IMG/VR virus record: IMGVR_UViG_3300042907_001596
Location: 64,001-128,000 of that record
Length of the DNA: 64,000 nt
Strand: one strand, 5' to 3'
Origin: a virus
Positions 2,855-22,926 of this stretch are shown here, piece after piece. The notes beneath the pieces were generated by a model. That model was not told the origin of the DNA, searched no databases, and saw only the letters and a program-made list of their open reading frames with translations. The position numbers and the translations under genes were made by a program. Positions within the stretch are counted from its first letter, which is position 1. Each line of letters starts with the position of its first letter.

Positions 2855-3286
2855 ATGACCATCCGCGACAAAGTTCGCATCGACATTGAGTGCATCGACG
2901 GGGTGCGGACAGAAGACCGAACACCCGTCCGCGAGGTCACCCTGACCCACGCCGACGTGCCCGACCTGCCCGCCCTCGTGGAGTGGCGCGACAAGCGGTT
3001 CACCCCCGACACGGTGACCATCCGCTACCGCCCCAGCCGGGGGAACGTCGACAAGCTGGGCTTTGAGGAGGTCACCATCTCCGGCACCACCATCCGCAAG
3101 GACGGCAAGCCCGGTACCGGCAGGACGGGATGCGGCCACTGGATGCGCCCCGAAGGACTGGACGAAGACCGCCTCGACCGGATTGGGGAGTACATCGTCC
3201 CGGCCTGGCTGCTGCCCTACATCGACAAGTACGACCCGATCGACGGAGAGTTCCCCTTCTCCGCGAAGGAAGAGGTGCCCGCATGA
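2855..3286 (+). CDS. Hypothetical protein
   Basis: RBS aggagg; ORF track. Confidence 0.75.
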   Translation: MTIRDKVRIDIECIDGVRTEDRTPVREVTLTHADVPDLPALVEWRDKRFTPDTVTIRYRPSRGNVDKLGFEEVTISGTTIRKDGKPGTGRTGCGHWMRPEGLDEDRLDRIGEYIVPAWLLPYIDKYDPIDGEFPFSAKEEVPA

Positions 3287-13941: not shown

Positions 13942-14385
13942 ATGACCCGGCGCAAAGCTGTCATCGTAGACGTAGACGGCACCCTCGCGGACGTGCGCGG
14001 GATCCGCCACCACGTCACCACCAAGCCCAAAGACTTCGACGCTTTCCACGCCGCCTCCGCTGATGTTCCCCCGAACCAGCAGGCGATCGACTTCGTGCAG
14101 CGCCACCACGACGCCGGACACGTCATCGTGGTCGTCACCGCCCGCCGCCAGCAGTGGTTGGGCGTGACGCAAGCGTGGCTCGACCAGCATGTGCCGGTGC
14201 CCTTCGACGGCCCCTTCCACCGGGCCGACGACGACTTCCGGCCCGACGTGCAGGTGAAGCGGGACATCCACCGCTACCTCGCCCGCCACTTCGACATCCG
14301 TGGTGCGATAGACGACAACCCCAACGTCATCGCGTTGTGGGACAGCATCGGCATCCCGGTGGAGGTCGTGCCGGGGTGGGAATAG
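13942..14385 (+). CDS. HAD-family phosphatase (polynucleotide 3'-phosphatase-like)
   Basis: DVDGTL motif I, VTAR motif II, K, IDDNP motif IV. Confidence 0.85.
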   Translation: MTRRKAVIVDVDGTLADVRGIRHHVTTKPKDFDAFHAASADVPPNQQAIDFVQRHHDAGHVIVVVTARRQQWLGVTQAWLDQHVPVPFDGPFHRADDDFRPDVQVKRDIHRYLARHFDIRGAIDDNPNVIALWDSIGIPVEVVPGWE

Positions 14386-14404: not shown

Positions 14405-14430
14405 GTAATAAGTGGAGGGAAAGGAGCGAA

Positions 14431-14583
14431 ATGGCCAAGATGCTGGCTCACGCCCAACACATCCGCCAGGGCTACGAAACCTGCGGGTGCGGGCGACCCC
14501 AATGCCGAAAAAAGCGCATAGACGATCGGCGCACTCAGCGCCGGGTGGAAAAAGCCGCGTGGCGGAAAGAGGTAGCGCAATGA
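14431..14583 (+). CDS. Small basic Cys-containing protein (50 aa)
   Basis: RBS aaggag; MAKMLAHAQ...CGCGRPQC; ATGA overlap; translated by hand. Confidence 0.65.
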   Translation: MAKMLAHAQHIRQGYETCGCGRPQCRKKRIDDRRTQRRVEKAAWRKEVAQ

Positions 14584-14993
14584 GAGACTTCATCCCCTTC
14601 AAGGGCCGCAAGCTCGTCCAGGGCGCACCCCACAAGGTGTACTGGAACCTGCACAAAGACGTGTGGTCGCTGGTGGCCCAGGACGGCCCCGACAAAGGCC
14701 GCGTGGTCGGCCACGTCCCCCAACTGGGGCTGCACGACGTGAAGTTCGTCGTGTCCCAAGCCGGACGGGCGCGGGTGATCCGCGAGGAGAAGAAGAACGT
14801 CCACGCCTTCGCCGTCGGCATCCCGGTCAGCCCCTGGCAGATCCATTCGCTGGCTGCTGGCCCGCTGCGGCAACTGAGCTACAACCCCTACAAGGCGGGC
14901 CACTTCGTGGTGCGCGACACCGGCGCGAAGATCGACGCCGCCGGACTGGTGGTGTTCAACGACGCCGGGAAAGCCTTCGCGGACGCGGAATAA
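14580..14993 (+). CDS. Conserved phage hypothetical protein
   Basis: VYWNLH...GRV..H...KNVHAF pattern recalled from many phages. Confidence 0.75.
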   Translation: MRDFIPFKGRKLVQGAPHKVYWNLHKDVWSLVAQDGPDKGRVVGHVPQLGLHDVKFVVSQAGRARVIREEKKNVHAFAVGIPVSPWQIHSLAAGPLRQLSYNPYKAGHFVVRDTGAKIDAAGLVVFNDAGKAFADAE

Positions 14994-15012
14994 TCCCGAC
15001 CACCCTGGCGTT
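14987..15012 (+). promoter_or_regulatory. GGAAT-N18-GTT promoter (copy 7), driving the ncRNA
   Basis: Exact spacing; overlaps upstream stop. Confidence 0.8.
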
Positions 15013-15052
15013 ACATCTAGTGGAGGGGCCAGGAAACTTCCCCCCGGTGATG

Positions 15053-15395
15053 TTTGAGAACTGAAGAGAGATTCCAGACCTGCGAGGTACCTTGCAAGTA
15101 ACTCAGAAGCGGCGCTGACGGTTAACGACCACGACTCTGATGCAGCAACATCAGCACCTGCCCAGGACAGACACCTTTGGTGGTGCGTCCCCTGGAGAGC
15201 GATCCCTGAACGAACGCCGAGCCTCTTGAGTGAGGGAGTCACCCGCGAGGGTGGCACGGAGAGCGAAATCTGCCGAGAGAGAAGCAGGAGAACGACGGAG
15301 GCACAAAGTAGTCGAGAGTAGCCGGGGCGTGGCCACAATCCGGTGAGGGTAGACCAAATGAGAACGTCGGCTGGAATCTCCCTTCAGTTCTTGAA
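15053..15395 (+). ncRNA. Putative large structured ncRNA of unknown class
   Basis: 15053-15077 pairs with 15371-15395 (25 bp, 1 mismatch, 2 G-U). Internal hairpins 15137-15154 and 15238-15255 (GCGA tetraloop). No credible ORF; own promoter. Confidence 0.7.
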
Positions 15396-15410
15396 CGGAG
15401 AGGAGTCCCG

Positions 15411-15503
15411 ATGACGCAGGCTGAGCTTCAACTCTTAGCCCTCATCGCCGCTACCGACGAGGTGCGGCAGAAGATCCTCGACGCCTTCCAGGCAGAGGAA
15501 TAG
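15411..15503 (+). CDS. Small protein (30 aa)
   Basis: RBS gaggag; MTQAELQLLALIAATDEVRQKILDAFQAEE. Confidence 0.55.
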   Translation: MTQAELQLLALIAATDEVRQKILDAFQAEE

Positions 15504-15522
15504 TCCCTGCCCGCTGGGCGTT
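15497..15522 (+). promoter_or_regulatory. GGAAT-N18-GTT promoter (copy 8)
   Basis: Exact spacing; overlaps upstream stop. Confidence 0.8.
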
Positions 15523-16872: not shown

Positions 16873-17664
16873 ATGCGGGCACTGAAGTCCACAACCATCA
16901 GCTTCGGCCTGGTATCCGTGCCGGTCAAGCTCTACAAGTCGGTGGACTCCCACGACGTGGCGTTCAAGCAGCACCACGGCGGCTGCGGCGGCTCCATCAA
17001 GATGGAGCGGTACTGCGAAGGCTGCGAGGTCAAGCCGGTGCCGTTCGGTGATGTTGTCAAAGGCATCGACCACGACGGCACGCTGGTGCTGCTCGCGCCG
17101 GAGGAACTGAAGGATCTGGAAGGCGAAACCCCGTCGGCCATTGAGGTCATCCAGTTCGTGGAGGCCGACGAGATCGACCCGCTCACCTACGAAGCGGGCT
17201 ACTTCGCCGCGCCGGACAAGACCAGCGTGAAGGGCTACAAGCTGCTCCACAAGGTGCTGACCGAAACGGGTCGGGTCGGAGTGGTGCGGTTCTCGCTCCG
17301 CGCCGGACGCCTGAGCCTGGGTGTCCTGCGGGCCTCCGGTGACCTGCTCATCGTCCACACGGTGGCCTGGCCGGACGAAGTCCGCACGCCGGAGTTCCCG
17401 ATCCTCGACAAAGAGGTCGAACTGGAGCCTGCTGTCCTCGACGCCGCCCGCATCCTGGTGGAGTCGATGACCGGCAGCTTCAAGCCGGAGGACTTCGTGG
17501 ACACCTACACCGGGCGGGTCAAGGAGTTCATCGCGGCCCGCGCCGACGGCGGAGAGTTCATCCCTGCCCCGGCCGAAACCGCTGAGGACATCTCCGACCT
17601 GCTGGCGGCGCTGGAAGCCTCCGTCATCAAGCGGAAGAAGAAGGCCGCAAAGAAGGCGGCGTAA
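16873..17664 (+). CDS. ku: Ku DNA end-binding protein
   Basis: ISFGLVSVPVKLY, IEVIQFV...EIDP, WPDEVR, F.PEDFVDTY, DLLAALEASV. Confidence 0.93.
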   Translation: MRALKSTTISFGLVSVPVKLYKSVDSHDVAFKQHHGGCGGSIKMERYCEGCEVKPVPFGDVVKGIDHDGTLVLLAPEELKDLEGETPSAIEVIQFVEADEIDPLTYEAGYFAAPDKTSVKGYKLLHKVLTETGRVGVVRFSLRAGRLSLGVLRASGDLLIVHTVAWPDEVRTPEFPILDKEVELEPAVLDAARILVESMTGSFKPEDFVDTYTGRVKEFIAARADGGEFIPAPAETAEDISDLLAALEASVIKRKKKAAKKAA

Positions 17665-21451: not shown

Positions 21452-22585
21452 GTGAGCGACACCGGCAACGCCATCAAGTCGGCGGAGGCCATGCTGCGGC
21501 ACTGCGCCGTCGACCAGCAGCTAGCCCCCGCCATCCTGGCCGGGACAGCCCCCAAAGGGGTGTATCAAGACCTGTCGGTGTCGTGGCGGGCCAACATCGT
21601 GCGCGGCAACGCCGCCACCAAGCTGTGGCGGGCCGAAGGCCGTCAGACGTTGGCGATCCACCCCGAAGTCGTGCGCGAAGTCAGCAAGGCATCGTCGTCT
21701 AAGTTCCCGGCCGAGATCCTGCGGGCCATCCCGTACATCAACCCGATGGTCGTCTTCTCCGACCCGCCGATTCTCAAGACGTGGCGGGAGCGCACCCAGG
21801 CCAGCCGTCTGATGCCGTACGCCGCGAAAGAGGACGGACTGCGCCTCGTCGGATTCTTTGTGTACGGGCAGAAGCACGGGGTTGTCGCTACGCCGGAGTC
21901 CGACGCGCACGAACACATCGCCATGAAGAAGATGGCCGGAATCGTCACCTCCACCCACGCCCCCGACGCCCAGACGATCGGGATGACGGCGATCTTTGAG
22001 GTGCTAGACGCCGCAGGCAAACGCCTCGACATGGAGGCTGCCAGCTTCTCCGTGCCCCTCCAGGGCGACTACACCCTCGCCCAACTGGTGGACGATCAGG
22101 TGGAGCGGTTTACGTTCGCCGTCGGATCCGCCACCGAACTGAAAAGGGCGTGGGTCACGGAGGTCTACAAGATCTTGGTGGGCACGATGCTCTACCTCTG
22201 CTCGACGGTGCTGGACGCCGAACGGGTGCCGACGGTAACCACCAAGCACCTGGCGAAGACCATCGCCCGCAAGCCGCTCAGTTTCTACCGGGTGGGCTGG
22301 ACGCTGGGTGCGGCGCTGACGAAGTACCGCCAGGCCCAGAGCCGGGGTGAAGGTAGCCAGCAGGGCGACCTCGCCCACCAGCAGGATCCGCAGCACCGCA
22401 AGTGCCACTTCCGCATGCAATGGTACGGCCCGCGCTCCGCGCACGCCTGCGAACTGATGCGCAACACCTGCGACTGCGACGGCCGACACCGCGAATGGAT
22501 CTTCATCGCCCCGTACTGGACGCACCGCGAACGGTTGGGTGTCGCCGGAATCAACACGGTGCGCCGTGTCCCCAAAACGGCGTGA
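21452..22585 (+). CDS. Hypothetical protein, possibly AcrVA2/FinQ-like
   Basis: C-terminal PQHRKCHFRMQWYG...WIFIAPYW resembles the PHxRRGHW...W..P motif; family call is tentative. Confidence 0.6.
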   Translation: MSDTGNAIKSAEAMLRHCAVDQQLAPAILAGTAPKGVYQDLSVSWRANIVRGNAATKLWRAEGRQTLAIHPEVVREVSKASSSKFPAEILRAIPYINPMVVFSDPPILKTWRERTQASRLMPYAAKEDGLRLVGFFVYGQKHGVVATPESDAHEHIAMKKMAGIVTSTHAPDAQTIGMTAIFEVLDAAGKRLDMEAASFSVPLQGDYTLAQLVDDQVERFTFAVGSATELKRAWVTEVYKILVGTMLYLCSTVLDAERVPTVTTKHLAKTIARKPLSFYRVGWTLGAALTKYRQAQSRGEGSQQGDLAHQQDPQHRKCHFRMQWYGPRSAHACELMRNTCDCDGRHREWIFIAPYWTHRERLGVAGINTVRRVPKTA

Positions 22586-22608
22586 GGCAAGGCAAAATAG
22601 TGGCTGTG

Positions 22609-22926
22609 ATGAAAGGCCCTTACTCCCGCGCCAAAGTGTTGCGGAACGCCCTAACCATGCTGGACGAAGACCGGCTACATGCCCAACCGGACGGCACCAT
22701 CATCGTCGCCGGAATTAAAGAGCACGCCGGAGTCTTCACCCTCGTCAAGAACGGCCCTTTCTGGTTCAGCTTCATCATCGACGGCGACACCTTGGAACTG
22801 GAGATGATGTGTACCCCAGAGCCTCCCGGCTTGCTGGTGCTGTACGGCGACGAAGACGACGAAGATATGTACGAGCCGTTCGCCCCCATCCTGGCGCTCC
22901 TCCCCGGCGGCAAAGACGAGGAATAA
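22609..22926 (+). CDS. Hypothetical protein
   Basis: ATG 22609; ends in promoter-overlapping stop. Confidence 0.65.
   Translation: MKGPYSRAKVLRNALTMLDEDRLHAQPDGTIIVAGIKEHAGVFTLVKNGPFWFSFIIDGDTLELEMMCTPEPPGLLVLYGDEDDEDMYEPFAPILALLPGGKDEE

Follow-up and report, generated by a model that had tools for sequence, protein, structure and literature searches.

Background

A cryo-electron microscopy (cryo-EM) report on ROOL, GOLLD and OLE describes these RNAs as homo-oligomers, with kissing loops among the features that it reports (PMC12286853). For the ribosomal RNA (rRNA) operons (rrn) of E. coli it is established that a leader and spacer signal nucleates the Nus antitermination complex and also forms a helix at which RNase III cleaves (PMC2724277, PMC6614797). 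The nut site of phage lambda also contains a boxA (PMC2724277). The RNA gene described here has likenesses to these systems. It is found at positions 15051–15397 (plus strand, ~345 bases) of a 64,000 nucleotide (nt) stretch of viral DNA, which represents bases 64001–128000 of the 150,440-bp IMG/VR virus record IMGVR_UViG_3300042907_001596, rated complete by CheckV. The whole stretch is called the window, and the coordinates of RNA parts and promoter elements given below are plus-strand positions in it.

The gene encodes a conserved, plus-strand, highly structured non-coding RNA. It belongs to an RNA family that is uncatalogued in that it has no Rfam 15 match, that is carried once per genome by cluster C mycobacteriophages and that, judged by the sequences in which it occurs, is phage-borne.

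An RNA gene in a gap between protein genes

There is no convincing open reading frame (ORF) between position 14993, the stop of a 193-codon gene, and position 15413, the next ATG with a ribosome binding site (RBS), although the ORF listing includes minus-strand ORFs that overlap this gap. An earlier note on this DNA, made from the sequence alone, had pointed out the gap in an otherwise gene-dense region and had proposed a structured non-coding RNA with a closing stem of 25 base pairs (bp). The gap is real, and the stem is present as an inverted repeat of 26 nt at 15052–15077 and 15371–15396 (88% complementary, spacing 293 nt). A stem search with G-U pairs allowed extends it to 27 bp, positions 15051–15077 (5' arm) and 15371–15397 (3' arm). 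This closing stem is termed P1. The four smaller stems that the note had listed are also found: CUGAUG/CAUCAG at 15137–15142 and 15149–15154, CCAGG/CCUGG at 15162–15166 and 15191–15195, CCUC/GAGG at 15222–15225 and 15232–15235, and GUCACCC-GCGA-GGGUGGC at 15238–15255.

Folding of the plus strand is modestly more stable than that of shuffled sequences (z = -2.4), and the minus strand folds with a better score (z = -5.3). Because the plus-strand folding energy only modestly exceeds that of shuffles, the case for an RNA rests on homologues and on covariation.

Rfam 15 at gathering scores shows no match to the RNA in a scan of the whole window, and no match of an rRNA model either. At E ≤ 10 there is no match within positions 14950–15500, with 6S, Ms1, raiA, ROOL, GOLLD, OLE and tmRNA among the models, and at E ≤ 1 there is none on the RNA at the loci of seven other members. 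A blastn search of the RNA stretch against 50,697 phage records also gave no match. Homology is visible only with a DNA search of a single genome, that of phage Bxz1, where positions 22206–22288 align to the start of the stretch with 73% identity (E 5e-8). The Bxz1 copy, at about 22203–22605 of NC_004687, is between gp65 and gp66 and has the same layout as in the window, with a closing stem of different letters. In 200 of 203 cluster C records the RNA has an identity of 99% or more to that of Bxz1, and in Myrnavirus ScoobyDoobyDoo the identity is 67%.

Two strands are identical in the window, Bxz1 and ScoobyDoobyDoo, and these served as the search patterns M1 and M2. Pattern M1 is found at 32 loci in IMG/VR. 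M2 adds seven further members in which M1 has one or two changes, for a total of about 40 IMG/VR contigs. Metagenome contigs provide at least 120 loci with M1, and 79 among the matches listed also have M2. Among cultured phages M1 is present in 207 records, solely of Mycobacterium or Mycolicibacterium phages, and all of these carriers are cluster C (Bxz1/Myrna-type). The longest carrier contigs are about 125–170 kb, and a scan of the complete 150-kb genome with the 3' domain model described below shows a single copy of the RNA. Genomes representing one for each of 185,579 species have 42 M1 matches, and one alone, in a contig of an Acidimicrobiales metagenome-assembled genome (MAG; L166), has M2. 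The other 41 matches to this 17-base pattern are treated as due to chance, as ~70 are expected from the database size and pattern length. Neighbouring proteins were also used as search anchors; these gave one weak locus and then none.

The literature search found no paper on an RNA at this locus or with the near-invariant motifs, a 2023 catalogue of IMG/VR candidate RNAs (PMC10690425) being left unchecked. The catalogue is described as one of candidate RNAs of 29–151 nt, and it could contain a fragment of the present family.

Some uncultured phages have two RNA copies (L234:4932-5414, L252:2151-2636 and L288:1-1701). In L234 and L252 the copies are immediate neighbours, and the 5' domain of the second copy is the more diverged, with 51 and 47 bits compared with 118 and 127. 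In a single uncultured relative, a phage tmRNA gene (L215:1047-1394, minus strand, Rfam 49.5 bits) follows the RNA on the same strand at a distance of ~760 nt. There is also a consequence for annotation. The start of Bxz1 gp66 is currently placed within the RNA, at 22486 (L004:1780-1940, Bxz1 22486–22646); a likelier start is the ATG with a GGAGG site at about 22646. In many cluster C records "hypothetical proteins" are annotated over the RNA.

Covariation and secondary structure

Two covariance models were built from the short members alone, with the window and cluster C left out. R1 represents the 5' domain (139 positions, 30 pairs) and R2 the 3' domain (84 positions, 13 pairs). The window scores 61.3 bits with R1 (E about 2e-12) and 69.1 bits with R2 at 15287–15373 (E 6.6e-16). 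R1 misplaces the 3' strands of the window because of a 34-nt insert of two hairpins at 15222–15255; with manual placement of these strands, all consensus helices form pairs in the window. The 66 distinct full elements are 242–423 nt in length and vary through hairpin-sized insertions. All have an ungapped closing stem of 22–40 bp. The stem sequences are unrelated, and the two arms are always complementary. The stem starts 54–77 nt before M1 in the family and 64 nt before M1 in the window.

The covariation that the note had called for was analyzed with 90 distinct sequences of the 5' domain and 63 of the 3' domain, and it is strong in both. Paired cells represent 91.4% of the total in the 5' domain and 79.2% in the 3' domain, where shuffled alignments have 63.6% and 58.2%, respectively. 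Cells changed on both sides number 687 (205 in shuffles) and 163 (64 in shuffles). The covariation score of the 5' domain is 0.619 compared with 0.157 after shuffling, a value reached by none of 500 shuffles, and that of the 3' domain is 0.462 compared with 0.146. When the partners are slid by 1–3 columns, the maximum scores are 0.079 and 0.146 for the 5' and 3' domains. Changes on both sides occur in 24 of 30 pairs in the 5' domain and in 12 of 13 in the 3' domain. An independent MAFFT/RNAalifold run gives the same helices P1–P6. Covariation supports nine helices, and the proposal of a structured non-coding RNA is borne out by it. Across the family there are 257 G-U pairs and 105 A-C pairs, and this excess of G-U fits an RNA read from the plus strand.

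P1 joins two arms. The 5' arm is a rod of helices P2, P3, P4 and P5, followed by the M1/M2 junction and a variable P6. P2 (15079–15083/15284–15288; R1 helix 1) has changes on both sides in all five pairs across the family, and all five pair in the window. P3 (15088–15094/15274–15281; R1 helix 2) has one A-A mismatch and one bulged A; six of its seven pairs are kept in the window, including a U-A where the consensus is G-C. P4 (15102–15104/15261–15263; R1 helix 3) is paired in 94.6% of cells and reads CUC/GAG in the window, where the consensus is CCC/GGG. P5 (15110–15114/15215–15219; R1 helix 4) shows changes on both sides in all seven pairs, with 93.9% of cells paired.

The junction between P5 and P6 is near-invariant. 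Its 5' side is the M1 strand CTGACGGTTAACGACCACGAC (15115–15135), whose last 4 nt begin P6. The window matches the M1 consensus, CUGACGGYUAACGAYCACGNC, exactly. Members are identical in M1 save at three variable positions, and a few, including those retrieved by M2, have one or two extra substitutions. The 3' side is the M2 strand GCGATCCCTGAACGAA (15199–15214; consensus GCGAYCCCURAAYGAA), which is present with at most one change in nearly all members retrieved by M1 alone. M2 is 63 nt after M1 in the window, and the family spacing is 13–151 nt. The base of P6 (15132–15138/15196–15201; R1 helix 5) has a bulged A at 15134 and is paired in 93.5% of cells. The variable P6 insert, positions 15139–15195 in the window and 13–151 nt across the 66 elements, bears the CUGAUG/CAUCAG and CCAGG/CCUGG hairpins. 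L038 retains both of these inner hairpins with different letters. The 34-nt insert at 15222–15255 is a subfamily property, found also in L038, L015 and L237. It consists of CCUC-UUGAGU-GAGG and GUCACCC-GCGA-GGGUGGC, the latter with a GNRA loop; in these three members the loops are conserved and compensatory changes preserve the pairing of both stems.

The 3' arm of the structure consists of P7 and P9, an internal loop with conserved GAGAGUA and GGAGGGUA strands, and the hairpin P8. P7 (15293–15297/15365–15369; R2 helix 1) closes the 3' domain, with five of five pairs formed in the window. P9 (15311–15313/15352–15354; R2 helix 2) is flanked by conserved GAGAGUA and GAGGGUA; its three pairs all show changes on both sides, and the proportion of paired cells is 86%. 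P8 (15322–15325/15340–15343; R2 helix 3) carries a 14-nt loop and has changes on both sides in all five pairs of the family helix. A local P7 hairpin, CGAC...GUCG, was considered and dropped, as the family supports the long-range P7 plus P9. The R1 model also shows a weak match, which is not significant (8 bits, E 0.07), to the RNA's own 3' domain at 15290–15373. The arrangement GAAC-NNNN-GAGG...AAGUA recurs in the 5' and 3' domains, a possible ancient internal duplication.

A palindrome in the loop of P8

The P8 loop of the window contains the 8-nt palindrome GUGGCCAC (15329–15336), a proposed kissing-loop dimerisation site. In 24 of 28 distinct versions the loop is 14 nt, with three nt on either side of an 8-nt palindrome. 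A perfect palindrome of at least 8 nt is present in 23 of the 28 loops, and in 27 when G-U pairs are included; the value for shuffled loops is 4%. Nine palindrome types occupy the same eight loop positions. The most common is GUGCGCAC, in 20 of the 66 elements, followed by GUGGCCAC in 18, the window included. Others are GCUGCAGC, GCGGCCGC, GUUGCAAC, GUCCGGAC, GGUGCACC, the wobble forms GGUGCAUC and GGUGCACU, or a 12-mer. Close relatives can differ: L070 and L133 have near-identical RNAs with a four-letter difference in the loop (GUGGCCAC and GUCCGGAC), and L030 and L226 have GUGCGCAC and GUGGCCAC, respectively. Computed self-duplex energies of the loop are -9 to -17 kcal/mol.

Palindrome positions 4 and 5 are adjacent, so that these two cannot pair with each other in a single RNA. 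The letters of this palindrome are swapped in pairs, where those of a protein operator would be expected to stay the same. The maintenance of self-complementarity while the sequence varies suggests a kissing-loop dimer, and the palindrome is most simply explained by two RNA copies that pair with one another. Two other short palindromes were rejected as self-pairing sites. GGUACC (15086–15091) is inside P3 and reads GGCACC in Bxz1, and GUUAAC (15121–15126) reads GCUAAC in most members.

The closing stem and rRNA operons

The 5' arm of P1 contains an rrn leader/spacer motif of the boxA type, TTGAGAACTGAAGAG, at 15054–15068. It fits the pattern TTGAGAACTNNANAG exactly (0 mismatches) and is the only match in the window. 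The pattern is present in 130 of 151 sampled Actinomycetes genomes, usually as two same-strand copies ~2 kb apart, and the reversed control pattern has 7 matches in all. Six of the sampled genomes are unpublished (G008, G016, G025, G031, G037 and G044), and the tally without them is 124 of 145. The resemblance to actinobacterial rrn leaders that the note had suggested is borne out.

The position of the motif in rrn was examined in two operons, that of Microbacterium mitrae, with rRNA positions determined by Rfam, and that of an Acidimicrobiales MAG, read from the sequence; in both it is upstream of 16S and of 23S. In M. mitrae CTTGAGAACTCAACAG is ~180 nt upstream of 16S (two operons), and TTTGAGAACTACACAG is in the spacer, ~110 nt upstream of 23S. 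In the Acidimicrobiales MAG the leader sequence TTGAAAACAGAAGAGAGGAAC pairs with the spacer sequence GTTCCTCTCTTCTGTTTT and represents the 16S processing helix. This pairing of a leader strand with a strand of the internal transcribed spacer is at 1300–1322/about 3150–3172 of the MAG contig (L335), and a pairing of the same kind is read in Microbacterium. The window arm TTGAGAACTGAAGAGAG matches the 5' strand of the Acidimicrobiales 16S processing stem, TTGAAAACAGAAGAGAG, at 15 of 17 positions. In the window, as in rrn, the motif provides the 5' strand of a long helix, and its partner strand is beyond the enclosed RNA.

Among the 66 elements, 17 have an arm start with at most two mismatches to the rrn pattern, compared with four for the reversed pattern, and most read TTGACAACT or TCGACAACT. 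The 5' arm of L231, CCTTGAGAATTTAATAG, copies a boxA variant of the Acidimicrobiales 23S spacer, CCTTGAGAATTTCATAG (L335:3215-3231), at 16 of 17 positions. This likeness hints that the arms follow the host's own rrn sequence. From these comparisons, the closing stem of the window's subfamily appears to be an imitation of a host rrn signal, i.e., mimicry and not membership in rrn.

The sequence GAACUCAAUAG is, as we take it, the BoxC RNA that is bound by NusA at the M. tuberculosis NusA-rrn site. TTGAGAACTCAATAG is found in one sampled Actinomycetes genome. The sequence TTGACAACTGAAGAG, which forms the arm of L030 and L024, is also located outside rrn in three Actinomycetes genomes (L336, L337 and L338), at about position 1000 on the minus strand. 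This stretch is apparently intergenic and has no Rfam match, and its flanks align closely between two of the three genomes. These sites possibly represent another boxA-type leader. The variant TTGACAACTNNANAG has 14 matches in 61 genomes, and the control has one.

Transcription context and neighbouring genes

Immediately upstream of the RNA, at 14988–15028, is a promoter-type cassette that consists of GAATAAT, 13 nt and GCGTTACATCTAGTGGAGGGG. The general pattern, GAATAAT, 13 nt, GCGTT..TA......TGGAGGGG and then a hairpin, has 16 plus-strand copies in the window where 0.28 are expected. They are within window positions 1780–44710, at sites 1799, 2392, 3473, 3749, 13913, 14399, 15007, 15517, 16820, 17818, 21218, 22940, 40992, 41918, 43639 and 44659. 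The location of the RNA behind "promoter copy 7", as the note had it, is confirmed in that one of these copies precedes it. The cassette looks like a phage-specific promoter with a 5' stabilising hairpin. In an alignment of all copies, most others continue from the hairpin to AAGGAG and ATG, and the RNA occupies the place that is held by a protein-coding gene after other copies. A typical cassette can be described as a GAATAAT that holds the stop codon of the previous gene, followed by 13 nt, GCGTTnTAnnnnnnTGGAGGGG, a G/C hairpin, AAGGAG and ATG. In front of the RNA, a short G/C hairpin (GGAGGGG...CCCCCC, 15022–15046), of the kind that follows most other cassettes, is read at the predicted transcript start and may have a stabilising role. 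A related GGAATRA...GTTAYA element is upstream of the RNA in Bxz1, L015 and L038. A sigma-70-like promoter (at least 8 of 12 matches) is present within 65 nt upstream in 18% of members, compared with 2.4% of control windows.

Downstream of the RNA is a putative 30-codon ORF (MTQAELQLLALIAATDEVRQKILDAFQAEE, 15413–15505) with a strong RBS, GGAGAGGAG, 5 nt before the ATG. The ORF starts 15 nt after P1, the RBS is just outside the stem, and the stop codon is inside the GAATAG box of the next cassette. A search for terminator-like sites between the RNA and this ORF found none, and the ORF is probably co-transcribed with the RNA. In the family the next same-strand ORF is a median of ~30 nt downstream.

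No conserved partner gene is found beside the RNA; the best neighbour protein cluster is present at 4 of 66 loci. In the window the neighbours include a PNKP-type HAD phosphatase (13942–14385, Pfam E 2e-21), an L5 gp82-like protein (14412–14993, E 2e-35) and a Ku-like DNA end-binding protein (16873–17664, E 5e-36). From these neighbours, the RNA gene seems to be surrounded by functions in RNA and DNA end repair.

Proposed mechanism and alternatives

The reading that we favor, by a modest preference, is of an RNA that is transcribed in the style of rRNA, is excised by RNase III and acts in trans as a dimer. The RNA would be transcribed from the upstream phage cassette as the first element of a transcript that continues into small genes. 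The 5' arm of P1 would copy the host rrn leader/spacer signal, which is of the boxA type and forms the 5' strand of the 16S and 23S processing helices. As the arm copies this signal, the elongating polymerase would probably be loaded with the host Nus/rrn antitermination and chaperone complex, and the 5' arm would stay bound to this complex until the 3' arm has come out of the polymerase. RNase III would then cut P1 as in pre-rRNA, which would separate a stable RNA of ~290–300 nt from the downstream mRNA. A symmetric dimer would form by pairing of the palindromic loops of two such RNAs. The near-invariant junction would be the working site and would most likely bind one conserved host component. 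A host target is likelier than a phage one because no partner gene is conserved beside the RNA.

Several points weigh against this reading. An rrn-type arm is found in about 40% of members only, and about 60% have other arms. For this reason the mimicry is an accessory and not the core function, and P1 may be purely structural in members without such an arm. The arms in cluster C read TCGACAACT and not the host-type TTGAGAACT, and the L014/L166 member is unlike the rrn leader of the MAG that holds its binned contig. The covariation alignments were fitted to the structure being tested, which favors that structure, and the near-invariant junction is beyond the reach of a covariation test. In addition, when the window RNA is folded according to the family consensus, its energy is 18 kcal/mol above the free-energy minimum.

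A more specific proposal, which we regard as tentative and rather improbable, is that the RNA is disguised as an rRNA precursor and borrows both the rrn antitermination and chaperone complex of the host and its RNase III for folding and release. The two near-invariant junctions of the symmetric dimer would capture a conserved part of the host machinery for transcription or ribosome synthesis, such as RNA polymerase, Nus factors, an assembly factor or a ribosomal protein, and so redirect the production of rRNA and ribosomes during infection. The arms may then track the rrn variant of each host.

The main alternative to a dimeric RNA acting in trans is a cis-acting element for processive antitermination, similar to lambda nut or HK022 put, for which no free RNA is needed. 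The boxA-type arm and the folded RNA would stay with their polymerase and allow it to read through terminators into the downstream genes. The location directly behind the promoter cassette and ahead of same-strand genes, with no terminator between, is what such an element would require, and the median gap of about 30 nt to the next same-strand ORF and the exact rrn boxA-type motif agree with it. But about 60% of members are without a boxA-type arm, and neither a covarying palindromic loop nor a near-invariant junction is needed for Nus loading. The downstream genes are not conserved, tandem copies are present in L234, L252 and L288, and the 22–40 bp closing stem resembles an excision signal. 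We consider this alternative unlikely.

Two further alternatives are less probable still, and equally so. In one, the RNA is a decoy for RNA polymerase like 6S or Ms1, in which the rod and junction would imitate the DNA of an open promoter and thereby tie up the host holoenzyme or core during infection. The long irregular rod P2–P6, broken by a junction of ~17 x 13 nt, is broadly of the 6S layout. The hosts are actinobacteria, the group where Ms1 has been described as an RNA that binds the RNA polymerase core. Yet there is no Rfam match at E ≤ 10, 6S and Ms1 included, and the 3' domain and dimer loop are without a 6S counterpart. M1 could form a mini-hairpin of its own, which would produce a three-way junction and not a bubble, and to our knowledge 6S bubbles are not sequence-invariant.

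In the other, the RNA is an architectural assembly made of RNA only, like ROOL, GOLLD and OLE, with a symmetric multimer or scaffold, and not the binding of a single host factor, as its main property. It is phage-borne and ornate, has a covarying self-complementary loop and, in the subfamily insert, has a GNRA loop that suggests tertiary contacts; the kissing-loop homo-oligomers described in the cryo-EM report would be the precedent (PMC12286853). Against this, the one self-complementary site that was found predicts a dimer and not a cage, and the near-invariant single strands suggest a site for binding or catalysis more than a building block. ROOL and GOLLD are also much larger than ~300 nt.

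It is very unlikely that the RNA is a 5' leader, riboswitch-like or responsive to a protein, with control over the small ORF at 15413. The 3' arm of P1 does end 15 nt before the start codon, with the RBS just beyond the stem, but the RBS is not sequestered, there is no conserved expression platform, and the downstream genes differ in nearly every member. That the sequence is not an RNA at all, and either acts at the level of DNA (as an origin, a packaging site or operator palindromes) or is a coding region that has escaped recognition, is hardly credible: the better minus-strand z-score (-5.3) and the minus-strand ORFs over the gap would fit, but G-U is tolerated and A-C much less so (257 and 105), the helices covary while the strands between them are fixed, the length varies from 242 to 423 nt through hairpin-sized insertions, and the letters of the P8 palindrome change where a protein-binding palindrome would be expected to keep them.

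Considered as a whole, the earlier note is supported in part, namely in the structure, the promoter cassette and the rrn likeness. It missed that a large family already exists, with cultured cluster C mycobacteriophages among its carriers, as well as the near-invariant junction strands and the palindromic loop.

There are few large structured RNAs of unknown function, and new biology has tended to come from each of them. The present RNA is found in Bxz1 and about 200 sequenced relatives that grow on Mycobacterium smegmatis, which makes its function directly testable. Its family is common, too, in viromes from soil, freshwater and the sea. Host prediction for uncultured actinophages may become possible if the arms follow the rrn variants of hosts, and if the reading as a disguised precursor is true, the RNA would represent a new class of phage takeover RNA.

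Comparison with known systems

The rrn leader with boxA and the pre-16S and pre-23S helices are similar to the window RNA in that a structured RNA is bracketed by a long helix with the motif in its 5' strand. The window helix differs in that it brackets a phage RNA of 290 nt and not rRNA, most members of the family have other arms, and here Nus binding and RNase III cutting are predicted. Lambda nut and HK022 put are likewise phage-encoded RNA signals just downstream of a promoter. They are tens of nt in length and cis-acting, however, and are without a closing stem, a near-invariant junction or a self-pairing loop.

6S and Ms1 share with the window RNA a layout of the type seen in abundant RNAs, in which a stem closes a long rod that is broken at its centre by a large interruption, and a decoy role is conceivable. 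There is no model match to either, and here the junction is near-invariant and perhaps three-way, and there are an extra 3' domain and a dimer loop.

With respect to dimer formation, the dimerisation initiation site of human immunodeficiency virus 1 is also a self-complementary stretch in a loop, with mostly purine flanks, that varies yet stays palindromic. The present palindrome differs in its setting, as it takes up 8 nt of a 14-nt loop and belongs to a phage non-coding RNA, and in that there is no link to genome packaging. The pRNA of phage phi29 is a phage non-coding RNA that forms a multimer by loop-loop pairing, as is predicted here. It uses two different complementary loops and forms a ring on the packaging motor, whereas the window RNA has one self-complementary loop and is located near genes for a PNKP-type phosphatase, an L5 gp82-like protein and a Ku-like protein, not packaging genes.

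ROOL, GOLLD and OLE are similar in that they are large, intricate and non-coding, are often phage-borne and self-assemble, partly through kissing loops; for the window RNA a dimer is predicted. There is no sequence or covariance-model match between them and the cluster C-type RNA. The latter is found, among cultured phages, in those of high-GC actinobacteria (mycobacteriophages) only, and has one self-pairing site. It is not located among tRNA genes, and it is distinguished further by its rRNA-type closing stem and by a probable promoter of its own.

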